Source of the DNA: a virus
Lineage: Duplodnaviria; Caudoviricetes
DNA length: 63,746 nucleotides
Direction: 5' to 3' (one strand)
IMG/VR virus record: IMGVR_UViG_3300007734_000746
Span: 1-63,746 of that record
A program made the translations under genes and the position numbers. The notes under the pieces are model-generated. The model was not told the origin of the DNA. It did no database searches and saw only the letters and a list, made by a program, of their open reading frames with translations. Shown in pieces: positions 16,858-44,000 of the stretch. Position 1 is the stretch's first letter. Every line of letters starts with the position of its first letter.

Positions 16858-16904
16858 CTTTAACTCCTGTTAATGTTTATCTAACTTTAACATCTGTTAA
16901 TGTT
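16856..16904. promoter_or_regulatory. Two tandem 22-bp palindromic operator-like sites
   Basis: AACTTTAAC-TCCT-GTTAATGTT (16856-16877) and AACTTTAAC-ATCT-GTTAATGTT (16883-16904). Confidence 0.75.
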
Positions 16905-20783: not shown

Positions 20784-20805
20784 AACATTAACAGGAGTTA
20801 AAGTT
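20784..20805. promoter_or_regulatory. 22-bp palindromic site overlapping an RBS
   Basis: AACATTAACAGGAGTTAAAGTT is the exact reverse complement of 16856-16877; ATG follows at 20806. Confidence 0.75.
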
Positions 20806-29721: not shown

Positions 29722-30409
29722 TGTTCTTCTCCTTCAACTTAGCCACCACAGCTTGAGCAATAATTAAGAAGTCAGCAAAATCAATTTCCGCTTCCGTTTC
29801 ATCTGCTACTTTTGATACACGCCACCATTCAAACCATTCATTATCTGTTGGCTTTAACCACGGGCGCTGTTGTGGGGCGGTGCAGAGCATTTGAACGCGC
29901 TGTCCAGATTTCTCTGGCACAAATTCCAAATCCTCTAATTTGACGATTGACCCATCTTGAAATAGTACAGCCACCGGCTCCTGCGCTGGCTGTGGTGGGG
30001 TGGTGTAAAGGGGAATGCCTCTCGCATATGCTGTTGGGTCTGTTGTTACGCAGGTTTTATTTACGGGATGCAACCAAGCCACAGGCTTCTGCGCTGGCTG
30101 TGGTGGGGCGGTGGCGCACTCTGGAAACTGTGTAAACGCTTTGGTGCATGCATACAAACAAGCCCTGTCGCATAGTGCATCTGGATACATCCACGCCACA
30201 GGCTCCTGCGCTGGCTGCGTTGTTATTTTTGCGGCGAGAAAACATCGCCATGCAATTTCCCTAATTGTGATTTGCTGCCTGCCTATTGCCTCATAAACAA
30301 CGGAAAATTCTTGCCAAAAAGGCCCGACTTTGCTTGCAGCATCTTGGGTACTTGGAATTGCAAGCTCCTGCGCTGGCTGTGCCAAGGCTTCTTTAAGTTT
30401 TTTGCTCAT
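29711..30409 (-). CDS. Modular-array protein with four QPAQE/K modules
   Basis: 232 aa with repeated PAQEPVAW and LYTTPPQ. Confidence 0.7.
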   Translation of the reverse strand: MSKKLKEALAQPAQELAIPSTQDAASKVGPFWQEFSVVYEAIGRQQITIREIAWRCFLAAKITTQPAQEPVAWMYPDALCDRACLYACTKAFTQFPECATAPPQPAQKPVAWLHPVNKTCVTTDPTAYARGIPLYTTPPQPAQEPVAVLFQDGSIVKLEDLEFVPEKSGQRVQMLCTAPQQRPWLKPTDNEWFEWWRVSKVADETEAEIDFADFLIIAQAVVAKLKEKNNGT

Positions 30410-30746
30410 ATATTTCCTTTAGTGTGGCAACGCACACTGCGACTTTGTGTTCGATTAACGCCCAAGGATTGTCTGCACGAAGCAATTGCGCATGCGTCAA
30501 GAATCCTTCGACGAACTTATTGTTCACTTGTATTCGAATCCTCGCAAACTCCATATCCTGCGCCAAGGCTTCTTTGTGAAATTCGTCGCCCCCACAATTT
30601 GAACACGCAAGATAGTCAAGGTCAGCTTCAGACAGCGCTGCTGTAAATTCCTGCGCTCCGCATTCGTTACAAATCCAATTAGGCTCTTGCGCTGGCTGCG
30701 CTAACTTGTCCTGCGCTGCTGCGCGTTTTGATTTGTAGCCTGTCAT
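30393..30746 (-). CDS. Modular-array protein with Zn ribbon
   Basis: MTGYKSK, AQPAQEP, CNECG..CSNCG. Confidence 0.65.
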   Translation of the reverse strand: MTGYKSKRAAAQDKLAQPAQEPNWICNECGAQEFTAALSEADLDYLACSNCGGDEFHKEALAQDMEFARIRIQVNNKFVEGFLTHAQLLRADNPWALIEHKVAVCVATLKEIYEQKT

Positions 30747-30967
30747 GTTGTTCCCCTTGCGCGGATTGTTTCAGCCGCTAGTCTTGGTGTAAATCCACAA
30801 ACCAAACACCCGCCTTTGTCATTTTGTGCAAACTGCACCAATGCAGGCGCGCCTTCAAACATCTGCGCTATTGCCTCACGCTCCTGTGCTGCTACCAATT
30901 CGGCAAAGTGTTCTATATCACCATGCAAGGTTAGCCCGTTAGCTTCAATTAGTTCTTTGTATTTCAT
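30743..30967 (-). CDS. Modular-array protein (AAQERE...IRARGTT)
   Basis: C-terminal module shared with 32226-32483 and 32480-32746. Confidence 0.65.
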   Translation of the reverse strand: MKYKELIEANGLTLHGDIEHFAELVAAQEREAIAQMFEGAPALVQFAQNDKGGCLVCGFTPRLAAETIRARGTT

Positions 30968-31191
30968 GGTCTGCTCCTTGCAATTCTGTGTAACGTATCT
31001 TCAAACGGCTCGGCTGCTACGCCCTTGCCTTCCCACGATTGCCACAGCCCGTTGCGGCGGTCATCAATAGTTAGATTGCCATCAGGACTGTTCGAGAGCA
31101 GTATCCCCATCTCTTTGCAGCTTGCGGTAAACCGCTTGGGTTCTTCCTGCGGCGGGCAGATTGTGTATGTGTATGGTAGTTGTGCCATCAC
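30964..31191 (-). CDS. Hypothetical protein
   Basis: 75 aa, coupled at both ends. Confidence 0.55.
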   Translation of the reverse strand: MMAQLPYTYTICPPQEEPKRFTASCKEMGILLSNSPDGNLTIDDRRNGLWQSWEGKGVAAEPFEDTLHRIARSRP

Positions 31192-31505
31192 AACTCCAAC
31201 ATATCAAGTTGCATAGCAATACGGCGGTCAAGTTCCTCAAGCCCGTTTATAATTGCGTTAAGCCGTTGCGATAATTCAGAGTTGCCTTCACGCTTGGGCA
31301 TGGCTTGGTTGTCTTCTTGCGCCAACTTTGGGTCACGCGATACCACACGCAGCCGGTGTAAAAGCACATCAAATTTCCCGCCGCACTGCTCAACTTGGTT
31401 CTCTATGTGCTGCATAGCGTAAAAAATGTGCGACTGCTTTACTTCGGTTTGCTGGGCAACAGAACCACGCGTATCAAAATATGTTTGTCCAATAATACTC
31501 ATCAC
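31188..31505 (-). CDS. Hypothetical coiled-coil protein
   Basis: 105 aa, coupled to neighbours. Confidence 0.6.
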   Translation of the reverse strand: MMSIIGQTYFDTRGSVAQQTEVKQSHIFYAMQHIENQVEQCGGKFDVLLHRLRVVSRDPKLAQEDNQAMPKREGNSELSQRLNAIINGLEELDRRIAMQLDMLEL

Positions 31506-32149
31506 TCTTCTCCTTCAAGGTTTTCAATGTGTGTCTTCAAGTCAACGATGCGCATTGCTTGTCGTTGGGTAACCTGTTGCTCTGCTGCAAGCTCATCACG
31601 CACCTTGATATACATAGCGCGGTAGTCTTTGCAGTGAGGGCACTCGCGTCCTATGCCGTCCAAGTAGCCGCGCTGGTATGCTGATTCTGGGTCAGTTTCT
31701 TGCTCTTTGGGCAACAACTCAAACAGTTCTGCAACTTGCTCATTTGTAAAAACACCAATGTGTAAGTCAGGAAACTTAACCCATTGGCGGTCTGTGCCGG
31801 AAATATGAATGACGCAGTATTCCTCCGTTTCAAGGCATAGCAACCGATCACCACGGCGGTACTTTTGTGCCACTGGTTGTGGTGTGGTGTACAACGGTTT
31901 GAACGTCCAACCTTCAAGCAAATGCCCTTCTGGGTTTTCGTAATGGATGTCGTCCTCTTCCCCGTACTCGTTGATGGTCATCCACGCAACTGGCTCCTGC
32001 GCTGGCTGTGCCAAATTGTCTTGCCATTCGCCTGGGTGCAGCTTAGGCACATAGCCATAACGCTTACTAACTTTTTTATTTTCTGCTTCAATAAATTCGT
32101 CTATTGTCTTTGCACTTGCCGCTTTCTTTTTGCTTGGATAGCCTGTCAT
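31502..32149 (-). CDS. Modular-array protein
   Basis: MTGYPSK start, AQPAQEPVAW, PLYTTPQ, AYQRGYLDG. Confidence 0.7.
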   Translation of the reverse strand: MTGYPSKKKAASAKTIDEFIEAENKKVSKRYGYVPKLHPGEWQDNLAQPAQEPVAWMTINEYGEEDDIHYENPEGHLLEGWTFKPLYTTPQPVAQKYRRGDRLLCLETEEYCVIHISGTDRQWVKFPDLHIGVFTNEQVAELFELLPKEQETDPESAYQRGYLDGIGRECPHCKDYRAMYIKVRDELAAEQQVTQRQAMRIVDLKTHIENLEGEE

Positions 32150-32229
32150 TTTCCGCAACTCCTACACTTAATTAGTATTGTGTACACGGGACGCTTGCAG
32201 TACACGCAATAAGATTGATAGCCTGTCAT
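32146..32229 (-). CDS. 27-aa Zn-finger micropeptide
   Basis: MTGYQSYCVYCKRPVYTILIKCRSCGK; ATGA-coupled at both ends. Confidence 0.55.
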   Translation of the reverse strand: MTGYQSYCVYCKRPVYTILIKCRSCGK

Positions 32230-32483
32230 GTTGTTCCCCTTTCTATGATTTTTTTAGCTAAAGAAAAACAGCACACATCCCACAGGCCCTCAGTGCCATC
32301 ATCGGCTGCATCGTTGCACAACTTGGCACACGCCTCACGCTCGGCTTCTACTGCTCGGCGTATTTCAGCTTCTATCCCAGCCTTAGACCACAGAGACAAT
32401 GGGCCTAATGCAGCCGCCACTTGCGGTAAGTAATGAGGCTTTGCAGCCAATTCACGCAGTGCCATTTCTTCTTGCTCGTTCAT
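32226..32483 (-). CDS. Modular-array protein (EAEREACAK...RGTT)
   Basis: Shared module. Confidence 0.65.
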   Translation of the reverse strand: MNEQEEMALRELAAKPHYLPQVAAALGPLSLWSKAGIEAEIRRAVEAEREACAKLCNDAADDGTEGLWDVCCFSLAKKIIERGTT

Positions 32484-32746
32484 GTTGTTCCCCTTGCGCG
32501 GATGGCGGCTGCGAGTCCATCTAACAACTCAACTCCCTCAGTTCCACCGATATATCCCCACAATGCGTCACGCCGATGTTCTTCAGTTGGCTCAATAAAC
32601 TTAGCGCATTCCTCACGCTCATCAGCACGGGCTGCTGCTGCTACCAAGTTGGCAAAGGTTTCAAATCGGTTTGGCTCATCATCTTCTAATGTCCAGCCGC
32701 TGGCCCAATCCAAGTCAGCTTGCTTTGCTAGTTCAATAATGTTCAT
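32480..32746 (-). CDS. Modular-array protein (EREECAK...IRARGTT)
   Basis: Start MNIIELAKQ at the junction repeat (32746). Confidence 0.65.
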   Translation of the reverse strand: MNIIELAKQADLDWASGWTLEDDEPNRFETFANLVAAAARADEREECAKFIEPTEEHRRDALWGYIGGTEGVELLDGLAAAIRARGTT

Positions 32747-32756
32747 GTTGTTCCCC

Positions 32757-33011
32757 TTAGTGTTCATACCAAACAGTAACCTGACCATTTTTTTCAATAG
32801 CATTTATCAATTGTGTAAAGGGATTTTTTGTTCCTTCTTCCATAGTTGCCGCCATGCCACGTAGTGTTGAAATGTTGTCAATTCCAAACGTATTTGGTAA
32901 AGGCATATCAGCACGTTCTAAGCACGCTATAAACCACGAAGGCGCAAGGACATGCAAACTTTTTTGTTTTACATTTACTTTAACCGGTTCCCAAAAAATT
33001 GTTGCGCTCAT
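32757..33011 (-). CDS. Hypothetical protein
   Basis: 84 aa with GAGGAG RBS. Confidence 0.6.
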   Translation of the reverse strand: MSATIFWEPVKVNVKQKSLHVLAPSWFIACLERADMPLPNTFGIDNISTLRGMAATMEEGTKNPFTQLINAIEKNGQVTVWYEH

Positions 33012-33175
33012 AAAATCTCCTCTATCTGCGGGTGTTTAAGCGCCTGTGCATAAACTTTTGCGCGTTCGTATGCGTTGTCGCCCATAAACAATTCTGCGTA
33101 TTCCCAATCAAAAAACCAAGATTTAGTTTCAACAACCCAATATTGTTTTGGGTGTAGTCGTAGTCGTACTCTCAT
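33008..33175 (-). CDS. Hypothetical protein
   Basis: Start MRVRLR. Confidence 0.5.
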   Translation of the reverse strand: MRVRLRLHPKQYWVVETKSWFFDWEYAELFMGDNAYERAKVYAQALKHPQIEEIL

Positions 33176-33396
33176 CACTTCCCCCAAATAAGTAAGCACA
33201 CAACCCACACACAAAGCACCACCGTCATCACGGTTAGCAAACCCTTGAACGTGTCGGCAATGTCCTCGTAAGGGTCATCCAGTTGTGCGTCTTTGTAGCC
33301 GTTGGCGTAGGCATCATTGACCTCTTTAATACGCTGCTTGCGTACAGGGCAGTCTTTACCTTGTTCGCATTGACCGTTTGCGTTACAGCAGTTCAT
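33175..33396 (-). CDS. Small Cys-rich membrane protein
   Basis: MNCC...G.C.QGKDCPVR; C-terminal transmembrane helix. Confidence 0.65.
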   Translation of the reverse strand: MNCCNANGQCEQGKDCPVRKQRIKEVNDAYANGYKDAQLDDPYEDIADTFKGLLTVMTVVLCVWVVCLLIWGK

Positions 33397-33488
33397 AGTG
33401 GTGCATCCTCGTAGTTATCGGGGTTAACGGGTATCCGCTTGTAGGGCTTGTCAGGTAATGGCGTGGTGGGAAAGGGCCATGTGTTCAT
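33393..33488 (-). CDS. 31-aa Pro-rich peptide
   Basis: MNTWPFPTTPLPDKPYKRIPVNPDNYEDAPL; AAGGA RBS. Confidence 0.5.
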   Translation of the reverse strand: MNTWPFPTTPLPDKPYKRIPVNPDNYEDAPL

Positions 33489-34679
33489 TTAGTTTCCTTT
33501 CACGCAGAGTACCTGCTTTAGTTGGTGGACAACTTCAACAAGGTCGGTTTGGTTTGCCATTACTTGGTCGATGTCTTTGTAGCTGGCTGGGATTTCGTCG
33601 ATGACGCCCTCGTCTTTGCGGCACTCAACTCCCACTGTTTGTGCCACCAGATCACTGAGGCTAAACCTTCTCTTCGCTTCGGCACGCGACATGCTGCGAC
33701 CTGCGCCATGTGAGCAAGAGCAGTAAGACTGAAGGTCTCCCTTGCCTCGGACGATGTAGCTTCTTTGTCCCATGCTGCCCGGAATAATTCCCAGATCACC
33801 TTCTCGGGCTCGTATGGCTCCCTTACGAGTAACCCACATATTGCGCCCAAAGTGATTTTCTCTTTCGACATAGTTGTGGTGGCAGTTGATTGCTTCCTGT
33901 GTGATGGTGAACGGTTTGTCGATGCGCTGCTTCATAGCTTCAAGCACTTCAGACATCATGCGGCGGCGGTTTTCAAGCGCATAGTTCTGCGCCCAGCCCA
34001 CAGCGTACATGTAGTCATCAAAGTCCTCGGTGTTCTCAGGGAAGTACGCAAGGTTGTCATCGGGTAGCGTGATAAAGAACTGCTCCATCTGGCGCTTGGC
34101 CTTGGCAATGTAGTGCGTACCAATCATGTTGCCGATACCACGGGAGCCCGAGTGCAACATTATCCAAACGTCTTGGTTCTCGTCGATGCACACCTCAATG
34201 AAGTGGTTGCCCGAACCGAGGGAGCCCATCTGACTTGCTGCCTTGGCGTGGAATTTATCGTAGTCGCCCTTGTACAGTGGGTCGATGACTGTGCGCGTCA
34301 AGTCGGGGGTTAGCTCCCCAATGTCCGTGCTGTCATCGTGCGCTCCACCTACGCCCAGCGGTACGCGCCGTTCAATCTCATCGCGCAAAGGCTTCAAGTT
34401 ATCAGGCAAATCACTGGCCTTGAGGGATAAGCGCACAGCGTTCATGCCGCACCCTATATCGACACCCACAGCGGCGGGAATGACTGCACTTTCCGTGGCG
34501 ATTACTGTGCCCACAGTGGAGCCAATGCCCGCGTGTACGTCAGGCATACAGGCCACCCCATTGCTATTGATAAACGGCAGGCGGGCAAGGTTCTTTAGCT
34601 GGGTTAGGGCTGATGCTTCCACCTCGTCCGTCCAGATTTTGATAGGGCGTGCGCCCTCGTCTTGGATTACTTGTTTCAT
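33489..34679 (-). CDS. rtcB: RNA ligase RtcB
   Basis: MPDVHAG, PAAVGVDIGCG, GSLGSGNHFIE, HSGSRG, HHNY, PGSMG, SHGAGR and DEIP..YK motifs are all intact. Confidence 0.97.
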   Translation of the reverse strand: MKQVIQDEGARPIKIWTDEVEASALTQLKNLARLPFINSNGVACMPDVHAGIGSTVGTVIATESAVIPAAVGVDIGCGMNAVRLSLKASDLPDNLKPLRDEIERRVPLGVGGAHDDSTDIGELTPDLTRTVIDPLYKGDYDKFHAKAASQMGSLGSGNHFIEVCIDENQDVWIMLHSGSRGIGNMIGTHYIAKAKRQMEQFFITLPDDNLAYFPENTEDFDDYMYAVGWAQNYALENRRRMMSEVLEAMKQRIDKPFTITQEAINCHHNYVERENHFGRNMWVTRKGAIRAREGDLGIIPGSMGQRSYIVRGKGDLQSYCSCSHGAGRSMSRAEAKRRFSLSDLVAQTVGVECRKDEGVIDEIPASYKDIDQVMANQTDLVEVVHQLKQVLCVKGN

Positions 34680-35053
34680 TTGACCTCCACATCAGGGATG
34701 ATTGCTGACGGTTTGAATACCACGCGATAGTGGTACACACTGGCTGGCTTGGCTTCCAACTGCTCAACAAAATACGTCACGTTGTCGGACAGGCCAAGGA
34801 AGTGCTTCTTGTAGCTATTCGGCCCCACCTTGCAAGTGATGGAAAGTTCCCTGCTTTTGTCCCAGTTGCCCAACGCACACAAGCCCTCGACAGTCAACAT
34901 GTAGTCGCCAGTGATTCCGTTGTAGAACACCACACGGCGTGTGATTTCAAATTGGTCTGCTGCCTTGGACATGTTTTTCGAGGCAATATCTGCATCCGTG
35001 GAACAACCCGCAAGTGCTGCTACGGCAGCGGTAATAGCAATAAATTTTTTCAT
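34676..35053 (-). CDS. Phage lipoprotein
   Basis: Signal peptide with LAGC lipobox; AD..S.N.SKAAD.FE..RR.VFYNGIT..KKHFLGLSDNVTYFVEQ. Confidence 0.8.
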   Translation of the reverse strand: MKKFIAITAAVAALAGCSTDADIASKNMSKAADQFEITRRVVFYNGITGDYMLTVEGLCALGNWDKSRELSITCKVGPNSYKKHFLGLSDNVTYFVEQLEAKPASVYHYRVVFKPSAIIPDVEVK

Positions 35054-35295
35054 TTGGCACGCTCCTTAAGCATGGCATCTGCCATCTTGAACGCAAACCT
35101 CGCAACCGCCAAGCAGTCTAGGTCTTCGTCTGTGCGTATTGACTCCATGATTGCCGGGTAAAACATGGTCGTCATCGCTTGCCCCGCAAAGTGGTCACGC
35201 AAGGTCATGTCCCTTGCAAAGCCGCCTGTCTTGATGTGCCAGTCGGTGTACTGTTTGGCGTATGCGCCTTCCATAACTATCGGTTCGTCTTTCAT
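35050..35295 (-). CDS. Conserved phage protein (MTLRD.FA..AM...ADAML..R)
   Basis: Motif recalled as widespread in proteobacterial phages. Confidence 0.7.
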   Translation of the reverse strand: MKDEPIVMEGAYAKQYTDWHIKTGGFARDMTLRDHFAGQAMTTMFYPAIMESIRTDEDLDCLAVARFAFKMADAMLKERAK

Positions 35296-35660
35296 TTCAG
35301 TTCTCCTTTAGGTTTGCTTACGGGGTAACCATCATCCCACTCTTGCGCAAAGGGGTCAAAGTCAGGCTTCGGGTAAATAAAATTGCTGTCGGTTATGTTT
35401 TTCTCTTTCAGATAAAACTCCATTGCAATAAGGTACGGGTCAAATAAAGGCAGTGGAGAAGTGTCGTTATAGTAGTACGTTGGCTTACTCTCATCCACCG
35501 AGGTAACTGTCCTACCACCAACAACGTGGTGAAACTTTGTTTGTTGCATTTTTATTTTGTAGCCCTCTGCCTGCGCCACTGCCAGCTTCAATTCTATGGA
35601 ACCAATAGGTATATGCCTTACACCCATAGTTTCTCCTTGGGTAATTAGCTTGTGTCTCAC
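35292..35660 (-). CDS. Hypothetical protein
   Basis: Up to 122 aa; alternative ATG at 35627 with AGGAG RBS. Confidence 0.55.
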   Translation of the reverse strand: MRHKLITQGETMGVRHIPIGSIELKLAVAQAEGYKIKMQQTKFHHVVGGRTVTSVDESKPTYYYNDTSPLPLFDPYLIAMEFYLKEKNITDSNFIYPKPDFDPFAQEWDDGYPVSKPKGELK

Positions 35661-35851
35661 TTGTACTCCTCCACACGCGCATTAAGCCGCGCAATCCGGT
35701 TGACGTTGTAGTCCACGATGCTTTGCGCATACTCGACTGCTGTCTCGGCTTCCAATTTTTCCAGGTGGGCGTGTGCCAGTTCAGCGGCAATCACTTCCAA
35801 AGGGGTTGGCCTTTTGAATGGCTCTTTAAGTAGCGCTAATAGTTTTTTCAT
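35657..35851 (-). CDS. Hypothetical helical protein
   Basis: PTPLEV.A.EL..A.L..LEA.T..EYA.S.V.YN..RI.RL. Confidence 0.65.
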   Translation of the reverse strand: MKKLLALLKEPFKRPTPLEVIAAELAHAHLEKLEAETAVEYAQSIVDYNVNRIARLNARVEEYK

Positions 35852-36192
35852 TTGCTTTGCTCCTTATTGCGTTTGTAATAATTTTTTGAGTAGGCTGCTC
35901 TTTTTGCGCGCAAAACATTTTTGTTTTTTGCGTACCACTCACGTTGGTACTTGCGCTTTTTTTCCTTGGCCGCGATTTCTTCCGCGCTTACCTCTTTTCT
36001 GGTAAACACAGGTTCACCCTCCCCGCGAATAGGTGCGGCGGCATATTTGTTAAGCGCAAACGTTGTTGCCTCTAGATTTTTTATCCGTCTTTCCAGCTTA
36101 TCAACTTTATCAACCAACCATCTGATGGTCTGACCCTGGGCTTTCAAATCATCACTCATCTCTTTTGCTATCTTGAAAATGTTCCAACTCAT
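35848..36192 (-). CDS. Coiled-coil protein with basic C-terminus
   Basis: 114 aa, AGGAG RBS; first gene of the minus-strand operon. Confidence 0.7.
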   Translation of the reverse strand: MSWNIFKIAKEMSDDLKAQGQTIRWLVDKVDKLERRIKNLEATTFALNKYAAAPIRGEGEPVFTRKEVSAEEIAAKEKKRKYQREWYAKNKNVLRAKRAAYSKNYYKRNKEQSK

Positions 36193-36217
36193 TTGCTTTC
36201 TCCTAAGTTAAAAAGGT

Positions 36218-36293
36218 GAGGGTACTCGCTGCACTAGCGCTGCGTTTTAGGATGTTGGACCGGTTTCGCAACACTAGCATCCGCTTTCCCCTC
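36218..36293 (-). ncRNA. Structured 5' leader with loop-E/sarcin-ricin-type motif
   Basis: GAGGG/CCCUC stem, GAA/AGUA internal loop, 11-bp stem CUAGUGUUGCG/CGCAGCGCUAG. Confidence 0.65.
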
Positions 36294-36299
36294 GTAAAC

Positions 36300-36329
36300 A
36301 TCATACCACATGAATTCCAAGCATATCAA
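36300..36329 (-). promoter_or_regulatory. Sigma70 promoter
   Basis: TTGATA-18 nt-TATGAT with extended TG; predicted start ~36293 coincides with the leader's first base. Confidence 0.7.
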
Positions 36330-36354
36330 CTGTTGCATCATCAATGCTAAGCCC

Positions 36355-36670
36355 TCTTACCCGTTGACCCTCCCTCCCCCGGTTTTTGGGTGTTGGATGG
36401 CTAACGACTCTTTATCAAGGTGTTTTGACTGGTTTTTAAGCAGCCTAACGGCAGACCGGACTGCCGCCCTCCCCTGGAATCCCGATAAAGCCAGTTCTCA
36501 CCGGCTTGTCGATCATCTCCCAGCGTACTAGGGTATGTGTCTTTACGACAACCTTGTTTATTCCTTTTGGCTTGCGCTACTTCGGAGGTGCGGGTCACAC
36601 CGAGTTTTTTGTCTTTTCTTCCACGCTGGCGATACAACCACTTGCTAACGGATGGAGTCCGGTCGCAGCC
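36355..36670 (-). ncRNA. Putative large structured ncRNA
   Basis: Long-range complementary pairs 36656-64/36454-62, 36623-29/36520-26, 36546-51/36506-11, 36481-90/36410-19; no credible ORF. Confidence 0.45.
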
Positions 36671-36677
36671 GCAAACG

Positions 36678-36769
36678 AAAAAAGCCGTTACTACTGCACT
36701 GGGTCGTTCCCTCCTAATGGAGGCCAATGCATGAGTAACGGCTCTAAACCTGTTGTGAACGACTACAAC
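36678..36769 (-). terminator. Attenuator-like leader: small hairpin plus long terminator hairpin with U-tract
   Basis: AGCCGUUACU/AGUAACGGCU followed by UUUUU; the upstream hairpin loop GUCGUUC is complementary to the bulge GAACGAC. Confidence 0.65.
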
Positions 36770-36776
36770 GGTTATC

Positions 36777-36805
36777 ACTATAACGCACTTTTTGCTTTTC
36801 GGCAA
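36777..36805 (-). promoter_or_regulatory. Sigma70 promoter
   Basis: TTGCCG-17 nt-TATAGT. Confidence 0.7.
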
Positions 36806-36823
36806 TAAGTACTAAAAAATATT

Positions 36824-36966
36824 TGTTGGTGTCCTGCCTTGAACTTTACCGCAGGTTGAAAGTCTCAGGCTTTCGCCACACCAACACGGCTGGGGACTGG
36901 TTTGTCAGACGATGTGTCTGCTGGTCACCGGCAGCTTTCCCGATAAGACCAATCCCCATGCGTGTT
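36824..36966 (-). ncRNA. Two overlapping multi-branch RNA structures
   Basis: AACACG/CGUGUU plus 11-bp UGGGGAUUGGU/ACCAGUCCCCA (36883-36966); UGUUGGUGU/ACACCAACA (36824-36886) enclosing two hairpins. Confidence 0.55.
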
Positions 36967-36973
36967 AGCTTTC

Positions 36974-36995
36974 AACTCTAACATCTGTTAATGTT
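36974..36995. promoter_or_regulatory. 22-bp palindromic site
   Basis: AACTCTAAC-ATCT-GTTAATGTT (one mismatch to 16883-16904). Confidence 0.7.
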
Positions 36996-37022
36996 AAAAG
37001 AACCCCCCAGTCTCCTAGGGGG
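36996..37022 (-). terminator. Rho-independent terminator
   Basis: CCCCCUAG-GAGA-CUGGGGGG-UUCUUUU. Confidence 0.7.
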
Positions 37023-37056
37023 TAAGGGTCTTTTTAGGACCAAGGAGAAAGCAAGT

Positions 37057-37371
37057 TTATTCTACATGAATAATTTTTACTTGCCAACGGTTGTCCTTTT
37101 TCTGCCAGCCGTGGACCTCTATCTTGATGCCTGACTCCCTGACTATGTCCAGGTTCTCATGCTCTAGGATCTTCTTTAGCCGGGAAGATGTGTTGTTCCA
37201 GCTGGTGGTCTGCACGCCGATTACCGCCCCCTGGCCAAGGCACAGGATGTCAATGAAACCGGCGAAGTCATTTTTACGTTTTGTAAAAGAGTTGTACCGC
37301 TCCACTACCTCGGCATAGAAGCCGTTGTCCCTCATGTACTTGAGACTGCGCTGCGTTGTAGTGACTGCCAT
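37057..37371 (-). CDS. PD-(D/E)XK endonuclease / resolvase-like protein
   Basis: Start MAVTTTQ; D..GFIDILCL.....GVQ.TS..I.VHGW.K. Confidence 0.7.
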   Translation of the reverse strand: MAVTTTQRSLKYMRDNGFYAEVVERYNSFTKRKNDFAGFIDILCLGQGAVIGVQTTSWNNTSSRLKKILEHENLDIVRESGIKIEVHGWQKKDNRWQVKIIHVE

Positions 37372-37389
37372 AAATATTTTCCCAAGTTG

Positions 37390-37419
37390 TTGCAAGACAT
37401 GATACACTGTGGGTACAAT
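37390..37419 (+). promoter_or_regulatory. Sigma70 promoter for the recombination operon
   Basis: TTGCAA-18 nt-TACAAT. Confidence 0.55.
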
Positions 37420-37499
37420 GTGTTGCCCCACCACCTAATTCTACAGGAGAGACATATGCGTTGCTTTACATATGACACTAGGCCAATCAAGGAAAAAGC

Positions 37500-38378
37500 A
37501 TGATCATCACTAACAGGTACAACCTACCGCAGACGTTTGTGAACGTCTTAAAGCGCCCGTCTTACTCTAAGGGAAAGTCCAACATCTCGGCAACCGAGTT
37601 GATCTCTTCCCCAAGGATTGTCCAGCTACGCAAGCTGCACGCCGACGAAATTGAGCAGGACGTTAGCGAGATGGTCTGGTCCATCTTTGGCACGGCCATT
37701 CACGGCGTACTGGAACACGGCAAGGATGACCACCACCTGGTCGAGGAGCGGCTGCACACCAATGTTGACGGCTGGGCCATTTCCGGCGCCATAGACTTAC
37801 AGATCATTAATGAGGATGGCACCATCACTGTTAATGATTACAAGACTGTAGGCGCATGGTCGGTGATGAACGAGAAGATAGACTGGGAACTCCAGCTAAA
37901 CATCTATGCCTGGCTTGTCCGCAGGGTAAAGAACGTCGATGTAAGCAAGCTGGAGATCGTGGCCATCATCCGCGATTGGAGCCGCAGGGATGCCGCAATC
38001 AAGCCATCCTACCCCGATGCCCCTGTGAAGGTTATACCCATCCAATTATGGCCATACGAGCGCCAGCAGGAGTTTATCCAGCAGCGCATTGAGATCCACT
38101 CCAACGCCCTGTTTGATCTTGATACGGGCGATGAGTTACCCCACTGCACATCTGAGGAGATGTGGGAAAAACAAACAACCTACGCGGTAAAAAAGATTGG
38201 TGGCGTCAAGGCACGCAATGTCTGTGACACCAATGAGGAAGCTCTAGCCAAGGTGGCGGAGTATGGGAAAGAGTACGAGATAGAAGTGCGTCCAGGGGAA
38301 CGGACGCGCTGCGCTAACTTTTGCTCTGTCAGTAAGTACTGCAATCAGTATCAGGACTATTTAAAAACTAAGGAGTAA
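37500..38378 (+). CDS. Cas4-like PD-(D/E)XK exonuclease
   Basis: GTAIHGVLE, SGAID, DYKT, QLNIY and C-terminal RC..FC.V..YC.Q motifs. Confidence 0.85.
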   Translation: MIITNRYNLPQTFVNVLKRPSYSKGKSNISATELISSPRIVQLRKLHADEIEQDVSEMVWSIFGTAIHGVLEHGKDDHHLVEERLHTNVDGWAISGAIDLQIINEDGTITVNDYKTVGAWSVMNEKIDWELQLNIYAWLVRRVKNVDVSKLEIVAIIRDWSRRDAAIKPSYPDAPVKVIPIQLWPYERQQEFIQQRIEIHSNALFDLDTGDELPHCTSEEMWEKQTTYAVKKIGGVKARNVCDTNEEALAKVAEYGKEYEIEVRPGERTRCANFCSVSKYCNQYQDYLKTKE

Positions 38379-38380
38379 GC

Positions 38381-38551
38381 ATGAAAGACGACCTATTGAC
38401 AACGGCCATACTTGGCTGGGTTATCGCGTCATGGTTGACGCACGTTATTGTTTGTTTGTCGGCTGGCAAATGGGGATTCCTCATTGCTGGCGCAATCATT
38501 TTCCCAATCGCATGGATTCATGGAACCGGCGTTTGGTTTGGATTTTTTTAA
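38381..38551 (+). CDS. 56-aa membrane protein
   Basis: SWLTHV.VC....WGFLIAGA..FP....HG.G.WFG; AGGAG RBS. Confidence 0.7.
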   Translation: MKDDLLTTAILGWVIASWLTHVIVCLSAGKWGFLIAGAIIFPIAWIHGTGVWFGFF

Positions 38552-38560
38552 AGGAAAAGC

Positions 38561-39256
38561 ATGGTACATAAAAAACTAATGACTGCGCGGGTACGCCTGC
38601 TACACACAAAGCTACAAAAAAGCGGGCTTAACAAGTTCGCTGGGTACAAGTATTTTGAATTGGGCGACTTTTTGCCTGAGGTTCAAATGATCTTTAACGA
38701 TCTAGGTCTGTGCGGCGTTGTGTCTTATGACGCAGGCTACGCAACCCTAACCATCACTGATACGGATGACGGCACAGTAATCGTCATTACTAGCCCTATG
38801 GCTGGTGCTGAACTCAAGGGAGCGCACCCCATCCAGAATCTAGGTGCTGTTGAAACCTACCAACGACGCTACCTATGGATGACGGCTATGGAGATTGTCG
38901 AGAACGACATCATTGACTCTTCCCCTCAAAAGGTAGAAGAGCCTAAGCCAAAAACAGAGCCAAAAACAGAGCTTAAAACAGAGCCGAAGAAGCCTGTTAA
39001 GGGAGATAAGCTTCCCAGTGAATGGTCAGAGCCTAACCCAAAGTGGACCATTGAGATTGATGCGCCCAACGAAGAGCAGTGGAACAAGTTGTTGCTGGAC
39101 TGCACCAAGCTCAACATAAGCATGGCCAAGAGCGAAGACGATGTGAAAGAAATGTACAAGGTCAACCGCCAGCACTACGACAAAGTGAAAACAGAGTCAC
39201 CCGATGTTCATGCCACCATCATGGACTTGTTTAAAGAAGCGAAAGGAAAGTTTTAA
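38561..39256 (+). CDS. erf: ERF-family ssDNA-annealing recombinase
   Basis: KSG.NKF.GY.YFEL.DFLP..Q.LGAVETY.RRYLW..A.EI. Confidence 0.85.
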   Translation: MVHKKLMTARVRLLHTKLQKSGLNKFAGYKYFELGDFLPEVQMIFNDLGLCGVVSYDAGYATLTITDTDDGTVIVITSPMAGAELKGAHPIQNLGAVETYQRRYLWMTAMEIVENDIIDSSPQKVEEPKPKTEPKTELKTEPKKPVKGDKLPSEWSEPNPKWTIEIDAPNEEQWNKLLLDCTKLNISMAKSEDDVKEMYKVNRQHYDKVKTESPDVHATIMDLFKEAKGKF

Positions 39257-39516
39257 TGGATTACCCAAACACAGGTGTGCTATTCACCTCAACAAACAAA
39301 CGCAATGAACGTGCGCCGGATATGAACGGCAACATAAAGTTTGACAAAGCCTATCTCATTGAGATGATTGGGGCGGCAAAAGGCCGGGATGAAGTAACCA
39401 TCAAGTTAGATGGCTGGGTCAAGCGCGACAAGAACAATAACCGCATGGTTTCAATAAAGGTGAACACCTACGTTAAGCCCGCAGCAATACAAGAAAGGGA
39501 TCCTTGGGATGAATAA
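39256..39516 (+). CDS. Small ssDNA-binding protein-like
   Basis: N.G.LF...K....PD..G.I..GW..SI; acidic/aromatic tail DPWDE. Confidence 0.6.
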   Translation: MDYPNTGVLFTSTNKRNERAPDMNGNIKFDKAYLIEMIGAAKGRDEVTIKLDGWVKRDKNNNRMVSIKVNTYVKPAAIQERDPWDE

Positions 39517-39703
39517 GAAGAAACCAACCACAGTTAAAGAGTGGGAAAAGGTTTGCGAGAACCTTAACTCTGCACTTCAGTCCATGATGAAAGATGAAGT
39601 AAAACTTCAGAATAAGATTGAGAAACTTGAGGAGCAGTTGACCATGTCTGTTGGCGTGATCAAATACTTGGAGATGAAACTTGAGCGACCCAATCCAGTT
39701 TGA
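39509..39703 (+). CDS. Coiled-coil protein
   Basis: 64 aa. Confidence 0.6.
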   Translation: MNKKKPTTVKEWEKVCENLNSALQSMMKDEVKLQNKIEKLEEQLTMSVGVIKYLEMKLERPNPV

Positions 39704-40103
39704 GGGCATTAAGACTGGGCTGAAACAGTCCAAGGACGGCTATGTCTTAACCATAGCTGTCCATCCTGATGACCTTCCTGATGACTTAATGCGGGACTTT
39801 GTTGGCTCGCGTTATGTTGTTGTGATGGTGCGGCTGGGCGACGATGAGCAGCCCATGAGCCGTGAACATGAGTTTCCAGGCGACCATGCCGTTAAGATGG
39901 CTGGAATACTCTGCCGCGACCCTGAGTTCTGGGAATGGCTACACAAGAAAGAGTGGCTGATGGAGAAGAACGAAAAGGCTTGCGCCTCTTGGCTAATTTC
40001 TTATCTGGACATAGAGTCCCGCAAGGAACTAAAGACAAACGAAGAGGCCCGTGATTTATTTAACCGTCTTAAAGCAAGCTTTGAGGCATGGAGGAAACAA
40101 TGA
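39681..40103 (+). CDS. Conserved phage protein
   Basis: FE..K..LKQ.KDG..L...VHP; AG.LCRD..FW..SR.EL. Confidence 0.7.
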   Translation: MSDPIQFEGIKTGLKQSKDGYVLTIAVHPDDLPDDLMRDFVGSRYVVVMVRLGDDEQPMSREHEFPGDHAVKMAGILCRDPEFWEWLHKKEWLMEKNEKACASWLISYLDIESRKELKTNEEARDLFNRLKASFEAWRKQ

Positions 40104-40372
40104 AGAAACTAATCCCCTACAGCGTTTATCTGCCTGTAGAGTACCACGACAAGATAAAAGTATTGGCTGCGCAGCGCAAAGCATCAGCAATGGTGCGTGA
40201 CGCCATCTGCATGATTCTTGACGGCAATGACGCCTACAAAGCTGGCTACAACAAAGCTTTGAAAGACTGCGTCCGGCAGATTGATGAGGTAAAAGAGATT
40301 GAGCATATCGCCATCAAGGGCAAGTACCTTAACGATCTTCTGTCCCAAAAAATTGAAGCGCTGGAGATGTGA
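40100..40372 (+). CDS. Ribbon-helix-helix-like protein
   Basis: YSVYLP.E..DKIK.LA..RKAS.MVRDAI. Confidence 0.55.
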   Translation: MKKLIPYSVYLPVEYHDKIKVLAAQRKASAMVRDAICMILDGNDAYKAGYNKALKDCVRQIDEVKEIEHIAIKGKYLNDLLSQKIEALEM

Positions 40373-40584
40373 TGGATGAATTCGACAACATGCAGAATGC
40401 TATTTATCAAGCAATAGCAAATACGGATTGCAGAGAACCAATGAACGCTGTTATGGCGCTCTGTGCTGTGATGTGTGACCTAATGGTCCAACTCAAGATG
40501 GATGACGAAAGACATGCCGTTAACGCTGTTATACGTACCCTGCGCTTAGCAAAAGAAACGCGCCAGAACACGGAGATCCATTAA
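40369..40584 (+). CDS. Hypothetical protein
   Basis: 71 aa. Confidence 0.55.
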   Translation: MMDEFDNMQNAIYQAIANTDCREPMNAVMALCAVMCDLMVQLKMDDERHAVNAVIRTLRLAKETRQNTEIH

Positions 40585-40781
40585 TGACCGAGCATGAAGA
40601 AAACCTACGCGACTTGGCGGCTATGTTTGCTATGACCGGTTTGATCATCAGGAACAGAGAGAGGGATCAAATTATCCCTACCGCCTTTGCATTTGCCGAC
40701 TACTTCATGGAGGCGCGCAAACCTGAAGAGGGCATTGCGGCCATCAAGAAGCAGCGCAAGAAAAATGTACAGGAATCGTAA
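40584..40781 (+). CDS. Hypothetical protein (LRDLAAMFAM.G)
   Basis: Similar motif to 35050-35295. Confidence 0.6.
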   Translation: MTEHEENLRDLAAMFAMTGLIIRNRERDQIIPTAFAFADYFMEARKPEEGIAAIKKQRKKNVQES

Positions 40782-41052
40782 GTTGCTGGATGCTGCGCGT
40801 GAGTTGCCCTGCCAACATTGTGGTACGCAAAATGGTACGGTGGTGGCGGCTCACAGCAATCAACTGCGGGACGGCAAAGGCCGAGGCCTCAAGGCGCACG
40901 ACTACAGGATTGCATCACTCTGTTACAAGTGCCACTCTGACCTGGACCAGGGCACCCACATGAGCAAGGCCGAAAGAATTGAGCTGTGGGAGGATGCACA
41001 CCGCAAGACTATCGGACTTATGTTTGAACGCGAGATTATTGGGCTGCTTTAA
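40765..41052 (+). CDS. HNH-like Zn nuclease (DUF968/DUF1364-like)
   Basis: MYRNRKLL...PCQHCG..VAAHSN..GKG.G.KA.D..ASLC..CH. Confidence 0.75.
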   Translation: MYRNRKLLDAARELPCQHCGTQNGTVVAAHSNQLRDGKGRGLKAHDYRIASLCYKCHSDLDQGTHMSKAERIELWEDAHRKTIGLMFEREIIGLL

Positions 41053-44000
41053 CCTTATCGTTAAAGTCTTTCATGGCTTTAATCCTCATCTCTTCAATAC
41101 GCCGAGCATTCTTTGTATCGTTTTTATCAAGATACATTTTCTTCTCTTTGTTAAGTTTAGAAATTCTGTTTTCTACGTTATTGGCTTGTTGCCATAACTT
41201 AGATTCAGGATTTGCTTTTTTGTACTCTTCAACAGGCTCTTTGTTTTGTATGCGCTTTTTGATTTCATGCTCATACTCAGCCATTTGAGATATGTTGTCG
41301 TAAAACTTAGCTGAGATGGCAGCCGGTGTTTTAGTTTCCCCGTACAGTTTTCCAACCACTGGGATCTTGTACGCGGGAACTTCTTCTCCCTCGGCTGCGG
41401 CTTTAATAGATCCAACACCCTTAATTACTTCTCTGCCTACGCCGCCAAAGTACTGTCCAGCCAAGTAATCTATTTCATCAGCTGTTGGGCTAACTAATCC
41501 CTTGGTGTGTTTTGTCCCCATTGGAGATGTAATGAAGTTTAAAAACTCAGCTATTCCTTGGCTAATGAATGTAGCTGTAGGACGAGAGCGCTCATATCCA
41601 GGCGTTGGCTGGGTGGCCATATCCTTCTTATAGATCGGACGACCAAACGCATCTTTGTTTGCTGAGATTGCAAATAGTGGATCAAACGCGGTTGGCGCAA
41701 TCATTTGGGTAAAGCTACCAGCACCCAACGGATTAAATGAATCAAGAATTAATGATCCAATGCTTAGAGCTTTATCCCCAAGACCTTGATTGCTCTTAAG
41801 CAGCCCGCCTTTGATAAGCACAGCCTCAGTCAAGATGCGGCCAATTCCTGGGAACACATTGAGTCCTGGGGGCATTGGCAAGATGATGTAGTTGTTTCCT
41901 GCAAATGGGATTGGAATGATCAGGTTCTTGTCCTTCAAAAACTCCGGAGGATCTCCATCATCGTACCCATTTAACGCCAACGCAATTGCTTGAATGACGC
42001 CCAGGGCGATACCGCCAGCAATGATCTTTTTGCCCATTGGCCCGTTTAGGGTTTGTATTAAGCGAGCAGTTCCTTGGACGGATGCATTGATAAAAGCATA
42101 CAAAGCCTGGAAGGTTGGGGAAGCAGCTCCTTTGCGGTTAAAGTTAACGGTCAACTCTTTAGCAATAGACGCAGCCTTTTGTTCACTCAGACCTTTCTCA
42201 AGCGCAACTTTAAACGCCGACAAGCGCACAGCGTTTTCCATTGCATCGTTGTAGTCAGAGAGCCAATCAAAAAGCTTTTGTGTGGCTTTTTTAACATTAC
42301 CCCTGTTGAGCCGCTTCATTTCCTGCTCAACAATATTTACCTTTTCTTTTGGCGCGCCAGTCCTCATGCGCTCAACAAACTTATCAAATGACTCGCTTTG
42401 ACCGCTGAACTGCTTAGCAAATCCAGTGGTGCCTCCGGCAAGTCGCATTTGATCAAACAAATCTATTAAAGCTTGTTCTTCTGGAGATGAGGCTGGCTTT
42501 TTCCTCAAGCTTTTCCAGATAGCAAACATTGCTGGCAGGGTGCCTTTTAAAACTTCTTTTTCTTTCCCGGCAATTTCTGTCGTTGAAAGATTGAAGGCAG
42601 CGCTTTGTACGTCACGGGTCATGTTCCATGCGCCAAACACTGGGTTGAACTGCGTATTGATAGATGCAATCCAACGTGTTACCGCGCCGATATTACCCAA
42701 GACAAAGCCAAGTTGGTCAGAGTCCAGATTCTTCAGCGACATAGCCATGCGCATGGCACGCTCATCTTTAGGATTAAAGATGATGAATCGGTCTTCCCCA
42801 TTGATACGAACAGGGAACACGTTCTTGCTGTTGTATTGCGCTGGGTTAACGTCATAACGCACAAGTCCCGTGGTCTTGTCAATCGACGGGGTTTGCAGCG
42901 GGCGAATAAGGCTTTCTGCATCCTGAATAGTCAAGCCAAGGCTAACCATCTCTTGAATGAGTTTGGCCTTATTCTTAATCGCATTAGGATTAATCGGCAA
43001 CCAGAACTTTGGATTAGGGTTGGTGATGGCCAATGCATACAAAGCCCTGCCAACTTTTGCCTGCTCAGATCTGCGAATTGCTTTCTCGCGCTGCATTGCA
43101 ATGTTGGCCAGGATATCTTTAACTGGTTTAACGGAACCTACCGCACGCTTAGATGCACCGCCTTTTGTTCCTACTCCGCCAACATATCCAGAACCGGTGT
43201 GTACAAAGTCTAGGTCATCACGCTGTAGTGGGACGTAGTGCTTATAAGTTTTGTTCCATTGGTCAATAGTGTCCTGAGTCTCAAGACCACCATCAACCAA
43301 CATCTTCTGCGTTCCATCAATGATGTCATCAATCTTGGCAGCAAAGCGCTCCAGCTTGGCTTTCTCAGCGGCTGGTAAGTTGGACAAGTAATCCTGGGCG
43401 TCAGTTGTTTTAATTCCTGAGCCGGTATCCTGAACATCAGGAGAAAGATTAATCTTGTTAATCTGTTCGTTGCGCTCTTGTGCATGGCGGTTGTGCAAGT
43501 ACGTTTCGAGCGCCTCTACACTTATGCCCTCACGCTTCATTTGCTCAAGCAGCGGACGGAAATCATCTTTCAAGAAATCCAAAATGCGCTCAGCAGAACG
43601 CCCGTGATAAAGAGTTTCTTTTGTATAGGCGTCCAGGCGCTCATCAATCTGGCCAACCTTTTCATTGATCCTCTCAATTACACGCTTGGTGTCTATCTGT
43701 TTATCTGCGCCTTGATAGATAAGTCCATCTGTAAAAGATGGCTCAACCGTATCCCAAAGGGCTGTTGGTGCTGCATTGCCTTTATAGTTTTGGATGGAGA
43801 GATAGTATCCTTCGCCCAACATCTCTCTCGTTACAAACTTGCCGTCAGACTTAGCTAGGCTATCTAGCGCACGGATGATGGAGGCATCAGACTTCAATCC
43901 AAACAGCGACTTGATCTTCTGGCCAAACTCTTTGAGCCAATTCTTCAGACGCGCCAGCAAGCCGCCTTGTACAGCGTCATAGCGGGCTTTAACAATGTCA

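Follow-up and report, generated by a model that had tools for sequence, protein, structure and literature searches.

A protein-free island in an aquatic phage genome, probably a cluster of non-coding RNA genes around a large covarying RNA

What does a phage keep in a stretch of its genome that is retained among its relatives and in which no protein gene is conserved? The stretch at issue lies in the IMG/VR record IMGVR_UViG_3300007734_000746 (Duplodnaviria; Caudoviricetes), a complete virus genome of 63,746 bp with direct terminal repeats, which was analysed at its full length and is referred to below as the window. It occupies positions 36193-37056 on the minus strand, between a gene for a 125-amino-acid (aa) protein (37057-37434, minus strand) and one for a 114-aa protein (35848-36192, minus strand), and is called here the island. 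The answer that we hold to be probable is that the island is a minus-strand cluster of non-coding RNA genes and control signals, and that its large RNA acts in trans as a stable molecule. The island has no conserved protein gene. Conserved promoters (P0, P1 and P2) and hairpin-U terminators (T0 and T1) divide it into units, namely an RNA of about 57 nucleotides (nt) with an anti-Shine-Dalgarno sequence (sRNA-0), a repeated long-stem module, a hairpin RNA of about 95 nt (sRNA-1), a pseudoknotted RNA of about 320 nt (the large RNA) and the leader of the next operon. Compensatory changes preserve the folds of the large RNA and of sRNA-1.

The relatives of the locus speak against a shared protein. 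A search with the 125-aa protein returned 26 IMG/VR loci, to most of which the island aligns at 75-89% identity with module-sized insertions and deletions, and all 26 have a stretch of 0.6-1.2 kb poor in open reading frames (ORFs) at the position of the island; no ORF common to the relatives lies between the 125-aa gene and the next gene. The analogous locus search with the 114-aa protein gave 22 pattern matches, none of which was confirmed. In the window, the longest ORFs of 36193-37056 encode 134 aa (minus strand) and 100 aa (plus strand), and neither has a Pfam or PHROG match. When the frame of the longer one (36401-36805) was projected on a 12-sequence alignment, early in-frame stops appeared in all 11 relatives, each of which carries 2 to 16 frameshifting insertions or deletions. 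An earlier sequence-only reading of this DNA had judged the island to be without a credible gene unless ORF 36401-36805 proved to be a conserved protein; with that frame lost in 11 of 11 relatives and no family match, the judgement holds.

The best-conserved part of the island is the large RNA:

36348-36668, minus strand: large structured RNA of about 320 nt, with covariation in 51 distinct sequences

These sequences were obtained with an 18-mer of the RNA, present exactly in 49 IMG/VR contig stretches (in two, L059 and L064, by chance), and with a scan for its G-tract motif, which added 38 loci. Nineteen of the 38 carry the large RNA with a two-base variant of the 18-mer, and the other 19 were unusable, being unrelated sequence or truncated within 100 nt upstream; two of the 19 newer sequences were omitted owing to cuts at contig ends. 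The structure, built from RNAalifold output, an all-pairs covariation screen and hand editing, comprises 60 hand-set pairs in 15 helices. Over the 51 sequences, 96.7% of cells are paired, a value that none of 500 shuffles reached (shuffled mean 85.8) and that compares with 32-46% in slid controls. Both sides have changed in 26 of the 60 pairs (4-6 in six slid controls), and the covariation score is 0.290, against a slid maximum of 0.062. The count of further pair types shows no excess (48, a count that all 500 shuffles reached, their mean being 53.1). In a set of 34 sequences, pairing extended to 95.8% of cells, and 25 of the 57 pairs had changed on both sides, compared with 3-6 when the 3' partners were slid by 1-3 columns. 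The sequence-only reading had proposed a structured RNA of about 300 nt here and would have been abandoned had covariation been missing; the RNA is strongly confirmed, and covariation is found both in it and in sRNA-1.

The fold is elaborate. At the 5' end lies a pseudoknot, in which the loop of a CGG/CCG hairpin pairs downstream and both stems show exchanges. The hairpin GGUG-UGACCCG-CACC, the site of the 18-mer (36587-36604), is invariant save for a U-A pair that has become C-G in 17 of 51 sequences belonging to several sub-lineages. A mini-hairpin with a GNRA cap is enclosed by a short helix, UCC/GGA, that covaries (CCC/GGG, UCU/AGA); a long-range CCUCC-GGGAGG helix was considered and rejected, CCUCC covarying with the nearby GGA instead. 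There is, furthermore, a central multi-branch domain closed by CAAGGU/ACCUUG, together with three or four peripheral hairpins; in roughly one sequence in four, a short hairpin takes the place of one whole sub-domain. The RNA holds seven runs of at least three G, four or five of them clustered at the 3' end (36352-36380) and invariant in the 51 sequences; at the single bases between runs, L072 and L074 have U in place of A. A variable C-rich strand just upstream pairs with the first G-runs in several relatives (CCUCCC/GGGAGG in L030, CCACCC/GGGUGG in L074), and because this partner covaries, a quadruplex at the G-tracts is not favoured and a reading of them as a pure G-quadruplex is weakened.

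Folding of the whole island gave -325 kcal/mol (z-score -10.2) for the minus strand and -289.9 kcal/mol (z-score -4.8) for the plus strand, with 20 shuffles each, whereas sub-folds were scored against 200 shuffles each. Given this difference and the conserved G-U pairs, we take the minus strand to be the RNA strand. The density of RNA structures that the sequence-only reading had reported is borne out: the elements stand in tandem and are syntenic in IMG/VR relatives.

Comparison with known RNA families was negative throughout. Rfam 15 (4227 models, including C4, c4-a1b1, GOLLD, ROOL, Y RNA, tmRNA, RNase P, group I and II introns and riboswitches) gave no match anywhere in the window, so that the C4, c4-a1b1 and phage-motif models to which the earlier reading had pointed found nothing. 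Even at E up to 10, the segment 35700-37600 produced just five matches, of 13-21 bits as against gathering thresholds of 37-56, and Hammerhead_HH9 at sRNA-1 scored 18 bits against a gathering threshold of 52 (E 0.38), with the core AUUGG in place of CUGAUGA. A by-eye resemblance to the conserved regions of RNase P was discarded, the order of the regions being wrong and an Rfam match absent. ARAGORN detected no tRNA, tmRNA or tRNA-like gene in the window, and a test for a bacterial Y RNA of the YrlA type revealed no TROVE/Rsr gene, tRNA-like domain or Rfam match, RtcB (33489-34679) being the sole link to such a system. In 185,579 bacterial and archaeal species genomes (one each), the 18-mer had 43 matches and no true copy: all were G+C-rich unrelated sequence with none of six other large-RNA motifs. 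The large-RNA motif, with up to three mismatches allowed, was found in none of the four phage records whose terminase is closest (HTVC027P, 023Pt_psg01, DSL-LC04 and HTVC023P), and neither blastn of the island in distant mode nor megablast of 30000-45000 matched any of 50,697 phage records. Searches of the accessible part of the literature on structured RNAs in phages and metagenomes, and on HTVC023P-type pelagiphages, found nothing on this RNA. The large RNA thus appears to fall into no Rfam 15 family and to be a large phage-borne structured RNA set beside what look like ordinary small RNA genes.

The setting of the large RNA among its carriers is fixed: of the 28 distinct RNA loci that have at least 3 kb of upstream flank, 27 have the divergent exonuclease gene no more than 3.5 kb away, which implies that the RNA keeps one genomic position. 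Further evidence on the nature of this position comes from tRNA genes. Among 50 relatives, ARAGORN finds them in four:

L003, 1689-1763, RNA strand: tRNA-Met
L072, 8156-8230, RNA strand: tRNA-Met
L042, 4498-4663, RNA strand: tRNA-His and tRNA-Pro
L131, 560-728, RNA strand: tRNA-His and tRNA-Pro

All of them lie within the island, just upstream of P1, and in L003, the closest relative, alignment to the window shows the tRNA as a clean insertion of 78 nt. Because tRNA genes come and go there, we regard the island as a cluster of stable-RNA genes rather than a decision switch.

The remaining elements, in the order of transcription, are as follows.

37059-37087, minus strand: P0, a sigma70-like promoter (TTGGCA, 17 nt, TAGAAT; scan 10/12), over the last codons and the stop of the 125-aa gene
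37043-37054, minus strand: segment complementary to a ribosome-binding site (anti-RBS, or anti-Shine-Dalgarno), UUGCUUUCUCCU, also the 3' untranslated region of the 125-aa gene
36996-37023, minus strand: T0, an intrinsic terminator found by scan, with a 9-bp G+C-rich stem (37002-37023) and then a U-rich tail
36974-36995, minus strand: copy of a 22-nt motif, AACATTAACAGATGTTAGAGTT, containing the palindrome TAACAnnTGTTA and TGnTAGAGT, which resembles an extended -10 element
36883-36968, minus strand: module B1, with a conserved closing stem of about 18 bp (…AACACGCAUGGGGAUUG / CAGUCCCCAGCCGUGUU) and a variable interior
36828-36882, minus strand: module B2, with a GGUG…CACC closing helix and variable hairpins, followed by AACAAAUAUUUUUU; boundaries read from alignments
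36777-36805, minus strand: P1, a sigma70-like promoter (TTGCCG, 17 nt, TATAGT; scan 9/12)
36678-36772, minus strand: sRNA-1, with a small 5' hairpin, a long three-part hairpin (36681-36745) and a U6 tract (T1)
36300-36329, minus strand: P2, a sigma70-like promoter of the leftward operon (TTGATA, 18 nt, TATGAT with TG; scan 10/12)
36205-36293, minus strand: structured leader at the 5' end of the P2 transcript, in which a GAGGG/CCCUC closing stem encloses a 13-bp hairpin; start inferred from P2
36193-36204, minus strand: RBS region of the 114-aa gene, AGGAGAAAGCAA, the target of the anti-RBS

Transcription of these units is most likely the work of the host sigma70 polymerase. The two promoters of the sequence-only reading, P1 and P2, were recovered by the scan and are conserved in relatives. 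Over 40 distinct sequences the -10 element of P1 is TATAGT, TATAAT or GATATAA, and its -35 element varies around TTGNNN. A P2-like site (TTGAY-N16-19-TRNNNT) occurs in 41 of 55 distinct relatives, in 39 of the 41 at one fixed offset from the G-tract motif. P0 has its -35 element, 17-nt spacer and -10 element (TAGAAT or TATGAT) over the stop codon in 20 of 20 sequences, the window and 19 loci, and is kept despite differences in the C-terminus of the protein between groups.

sRNA-1 conforms to the general type of a sigma70 small RNA gene, with a conserved promoter and fold and a G+C hairpin followed by a U-tract; it would be either a terminated transcript of about 95 nt or the leader of the large RNA. 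Of 114 sequences searched with nhmmer, 66 contain the unit, each of them once. In 40 distinct sequences (one of 41 was left out as cut), 10 of the 14 pairs that RNAalifold predicts have changed on both sides, and the minimum free energy (MFE) is -43.3 kcal/mol (z-score -6.3). The attenuator with a pseudoknot that had been proposed for this element survives in part: its hairpins and U-tract are conserved, with covariation, but neither the pseudoknot nor a conserved alternative pairing was found. Attenuation at T1 by competing, similar CCGUU segments was rejected as well, the similarity being gone in relatives whose terminator stem is altered. The leader behind P2, a loop-E leader in the sequence-only reading, is predicted to fold stably, with an MFE of -38.8 kcal/mol (z-score -4.3), and its first 20 nt or so are common to several close relatives.

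sRNA-0 is a predicted RNA of about 57 nt that would run from P0 to T0, start near 37052 and carry UUGCUUUCUCCU as its 5' end; its conserved promoter and terminator hairpin likewise suggest an ordinary sigma70 small RNA gene. The terminator had been noticed in the sequence-only reading and was found by scan at 37002-37023. A G+C hairpin with a T-run occupies the T0 position in 19 of 19 relatives inspected; folded alone, the T0 region is not significant (z-score -1.6). The anti-RBS is equally real: over 12 nt, 37043-37054 and the RBS at 36193-36204, 840 nt apart, are perfect reverse complements of each other, and the genome has no further exact copy. Complementarity of 12 nt was reached by none of 500 head shuffles in the window, and by 0-4 of 500 across the window and four close relatives. 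L012 has a matching pair of another sequence (11 nt, reached by 2 of 500 shuffles) and L010 a weaker one (10 nt, reached by 21 of 500). When predicted duplexes are ranked over 289 candidate start regions of the window, that of the 114-aa gene comes first. The start region of the exonuclease gene (37500-38378, plus strand) comes second, at -20.7 kcal/mol and, by reading, with 12 of 13 bases paired; the first genes of both divergent operons might be under one small-RNA regulator.

Between T0 and P1 lie the 22-nt motif and module B. The motif (AACATTAACAGnnGTTArAGTT) has six genome copies at no more than three mismatches, where none is expected: 5378-5399 (plus), 16856-16877 (minus), 16883-16904 (minus), 20784-20805 (plus), 36974-36995 (minus) and 49571-49592 (plus). 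Its palindromic core TAACAnnTGTTA occurs three times (0.15 expected). The 22-bp palindrome of the sequence-only reading is accordingly genuine, yet it is one of the copies of a genome-wide motif, which may be a phage-specific promoter or a regulator or operator site. At about 16.9 kb, shortly before the packaging genes, two copies stand in tandem behind a terminator-like hairpin, and two copies are antisense within minus-strand ORFs. The two junction RNAs described earlier correspond to modules B1 and B2, and module B is present in one to three copies per relative. A scan for the B1 stem gave 91 matches in 57 of 114 sequences, among them at least one false positive, and yielded 46 distinct arm pairs with G-C, A-U and G-U exchanges. 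The interior of B2 varies between relatives, and B1 and B2 folded together have a z-score of -4.5. Several relatives (L029, L030, L034, L051, L063, L067 and others) have an extra module, similar to module B, after the P1 terminator and before the large RNA; its closing strands are GAGACUGGGAUUG…CAGUCCCAGUCUC, and it has the recurring pieces CGGGUUAGCGCCG and ACACUGCUUCAUGUG, and the window has none at this place.

Some indication of expression comes from public sequencing runs, in the form of assembled Logan contigs, which are strandless, whose depth mixes relatives and in which a gap in cover carries no meaning. Six RNA-library runs hold small shares of the island, and contigs from four of them (three studies) lie on it. 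Some contigs (36618-36818, 36631-36828) span T1 and reach into the 5' domain of the large RNA, and one, 36205-36702, joins the large RNA, P2 and the leader. These contigs come from relatives (4-52 differing letters) and possibly include DNA carry-over, so they hint at most at transcription of the island. Adapter-like loose ends at 36702 and 37365 in run X19, considered as RNA ends, proved uninformative in this respect.

Under the reading that we favour, the RNAs of the island would be stable, act in trans and be produced early in infection. The large RNA would arise either when the polymerase reads through T1 or when a longer transcript is processed at the long stems, and would bind a partner (a protein, the polymerase, the ribosome or a nucleic acid) through its invariant loops and G-tracts. 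In the lineage of the window, sRNA-0 would pair with the RBS of the 114-aa gene and lower its translation.

Several observations weigh against this reading. No promoter was found for the large RNA, which starts 15-20 nt after the strong terminator T1, and a run of at least five T is present within 40 nt upstream of it in 25 of 52 relatives. It likewise lacks a separate terminator, and the fixed offset of 29 nt to P2 in 39 of 41 cases could point to a role in cis or at the DNA level. The two long-range helices that would close the RNA (CUC/GGG and ACCC/GGGU) never vary and so lack covariation support. Intrinsic terminators are not enriched overall in the scan (3 found, 2.7 expected). The expression contigs fix no start, end or abundance of any island RNA, and the window itself is without a tRNA gene. 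As to sRNA-0, complementarity of at least 10 nt to the RBS is seen in just 7 of 14 relatives, with nothing above chance in the other 7, and its best predicted targets in relatives mostly follow the strength of the Shine-Dalgarno sequence; specific targeting there was accordingly dropped, the top sites being mostly any strong Shine-Dalgarno sequence.

These features of the large RNA bring up the alternative that survives best, although we consider it improbable, namely that the island is a cis-acting leader in which the P1 hairpin is an attenuator and the large RNA gates or modifies the polymerase entering the leftward operon of about 13 kb, in the way of HK022 put or EAR or as a sensor of read-through. 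The absence of a separate promoter and terminator, the proximity to T1 and the fixed distance to P2 are all in keeping with such a leader, as are, weakly, the RNA-library contigs that bridge T1 with the large RNA and the large RNA with the leader. The layout also recalls that of lambda PR'-6S-tR', with its order of promoter, short RNA, terminator and operon. However, P2 is downstream of the large RNA, so that the main operon transcripts would lack it, and an antiterminator placed behind a strong terminator is an odd design; the position of put, just downstream of an operon promoter and before its terminators, is not that of the large RNA, which follows T1 and precedes P2. Because the first genes after P2 differ between relatives, the large RNA is not a gene-specific riboswitch. 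Inspection of the sRNA-1 alignment revealed no conserved alternative pairing of T1, and the tRNA insertions fit a locus of stable RNAs better.

Less likely still is an antisense immunity switch of the P1 C4 or P4 CI kind, with a short RNA cut from a leader that blocks an antirepressor-like gene and sets lysis against a carrier state or lysogeny. The 12-nt anti-RBS, which shares its strand with the matching RBS and precedes it by 840 nt, is what such a switch would use, the pairs of L012 and, more weakly, L010 are independent of it, and the genome has no match to an integrase or an HTH_3 repressor. Nevertheless, no C4 or c4-a1b1 match appears even at E up to 10; none of the six downstream proteins, from 35848-36192 through RtcB, belongs to an antirepressor family of Pfam or PHROGs; and 7 of the 14 relatives lack the complementarity. 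Nothing points to lysogeny, with no integrase found and a virus contig ending in direct terminal repeats, and the best-conserved part of the island, the 320-nt RNA, would be left unexplained. The analogy to C4 and CI drawn in the sequence-only reading is therefore retained for the candidate anti-RBS small RNA, in a part of the family, and fails on the Rfam and antirepressor searches. The decision or replication circuit that it envisaged finds nothing in its favour that would indicate lysogeny, immunity or a replication role, and the tRNAs speak for a stable-RNA cluster.

We give little credence to a replication origin primed by transcription, in which the G-rich end of a transcript would form an RNA-DNA hybrid or quadruplex and prime leftward synthesis. 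It would account for the seven G-runs, with their invariant 3' cluster, for the A-to-U changes between runs in L072 and L074, as could occur in the loop bases of a quadruplex, and for the location of the island between recombination genes and an operon that includes a helicase. Yet the pairing of the first G-runs with the C-rich strand, with its matched A-to-U change, describes an ordinary hairpin; an antisense regulator, iterons and an AT-rich unwinding stretch other than P2 are all lacking; all turns of the GC skew are explained by gene orientation; and tRNA genes within the island do not fit. Finally, a small protein (ORF 36401-36805 or another) or mobile DNA inserted between 12-bp inverted repeats is largely refuted: the window has its 134-aa ORF, L003 keeps an open stretch of 133 aa in some frame, and a 12-bp inverted repeat bounds the island exactly, but the window frame is broken in all 11 relatives, mostly by frameshifting indels, and has no family match, the G-U pairs and compensatory changes suit RNA and not codons, none of the 26 loci is an empty site, and one arm of the repeat is a working RBS.

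Returning to the cluster of stable RNA genes, known systems offer several partial parallels. GOLLD and ROOL are linked to phages and prophages and often lie near tRNA genes, a trait that is typical and not strictly defining. Both are large structured RNAs (cf. the accessible part of 10.1101/2024.12.08.627333). The large RNA resembles them in being phage-encoded, several hundred nucleotides long and multi-branched, with a pseudoknot, covariation and, in 4 of 50 relatives, tRNA neighbours. It differs in matching no covariance model, either at gathering thresholds or at E up to 10, in its length of about 320 nt compared with 500-800, in the absence of a tRNA from the window, and in its restriction to one syntenic position in one phage group. 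In the tRNA cluster of phage T4, the tRNA genes are accompanied by two stable RNAs, species 1 and 2, without a known function, and there, as here, tRNAs and stable structured RNAs stand head to tail on one strand of a protein-free region; in the island, however, the tRNAs are optional (4 of 50) and the other RNAs constant, one of them far larger, the two clusters being compared by description alone.

The antisense immunity RNAs C4 of P1/P7 and CI of P4 are cut by RNase P from a leader, have two loop pairing sites and act on a target of the ant/icd type. The island shares with them a short RNA that is complementary to the RBS of a downstream gene and lies upstream of it on the same strand. sRNA-0, in contrast, has a single pairing stretch at its 5' end and its own promoter and terminator; the island has no Rfam match, no ant/icd-like gene follows, and the complementarity is not universal in relatives. 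Trans-acting bacterial small RNAs of the RybB/OmrA type have a 5' seed and an intrinsic terminator. In its modelled form, sRNA-0 would be similar: transcribed from a sigma70 promoter, it would begin with a single-stranded stretch for pairing and continue with a small hairpin and a G+C hairpin that is followed by a U-tail; it differs in being phage-encoded and in that its anti-Shine-Dalgarno stretch may strike many start sites. Lastly, the ColE1 RNA II primer and mitochondrial CSB II are long folded transcripts that depend on a G-rich stretch. The large RNA is also long and folded, with a G-rich stretch near its 3' end, but has no antisense counterpart of RNA I and no mapped origin, and part of its G-tract is a covarying hairpin.

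The wider genome places the island as follows. The large terminase shares 54-58% identity with its counterparts in the Pelagibacter phages HTVC027P and HTVC023P and in two further phages, uncultured or from a lake. The leftward operon, 3' of the island, includes RtcB (33489-34679, minus strand; Pfam E 6.7e-129) and a helicase; a PD-(D/E)XK exonuclease and an ERF annealing protein are encoded rightward from 37500, divergent to the island. The sequence-only reading had rightly located the island near this divergence, between the exonuclease/ERF operon and the leftward operon, and had described the phage as one without classical CI or integrase, in agreement with the lack of any Phage_integrase or HTH_3 match in the genome. 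TROVE likewise had no match (its control was positive in two named genomes), so that the full-length RtcB RNA ligase has no Rsr/TROVE partner. RtcB was absent from the fetched flanks of other loci, and a functional tie between RtcB and the island is not apparent from these comparisons; the main text of PMC9599517 mentions neither RtcB nor the terms intergenic, non-coding, RNA ligase or promoter.

Other observations concern the rest of the genome. The product of 34676-35053 (minus strand), a predicted lipoprotein of 125 aa, matches Pfam Phage_VG64 (E 3e-53), and its PHROG family is labelled recombination directionality factor, which is odd in a genome without an integrase match. An ORF of 3396 aa (41036-51226, minus strand) matches PHROGs of unknown function over its last 900 residues or so and a DNA methyltransferase family at residues 1195-1400; an N4-like virion RNA polymerase was considered for it and rejected, PHROGs giving only these unknown-function families and the methyltransferase domain. 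A search for a T7-like RNA polymerase gave no match, its positive control being likewise silent. The segment 20143-21447, about 1.3 kb without an ORF of at least 100 aa, has one copy of the 22-nt motif and no Rfam match, and may be a second non-coding island; the G+C peak of the genome, at 18-21 kb (0.55-0.58), overlaps it.

Large conserved RNAs with complex folds are rare, and those known, such as RNase P, group I and II introns, OLE, GOLLD and ROOL, either perform unusual biochemistry or are still puzzles. With low confidence, we entertain the further idea that the 320-nt RNA founds a new class of large, complex-folded phage RNA, borne in a stable-RNA locus by abundant aquatic podophages that are related to the HTVC023P-type pelagiphages, and that its activity is one undescribed among phage RNAs. 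Examples of such an activity would be a ribozyme, the capture of ribosomes or polymerase through the anti-Shine-Dalgarno-like CACCUCC and the Shine-Dalgarno-like GGAGG, or a decoy against RNA-targeting host defence.

Taken together, the 51 distinct sequences, the clear covariation, the fixed setting and the neighbouring small RNAs make the large RNA ready for probing, cryo-electron microscopy and expression tests. The candidate anti-RBS small RNA offers a simple and testable case of RNA control in a phage without a recognisable repressor. The carriers are phages of about 60 kb from lake and sea metagenomes whose nearest cultured relatives grow on SAR11 (Pelagibacter), and the RNAs of the island may therefore bear on how such phages take over their hosts.

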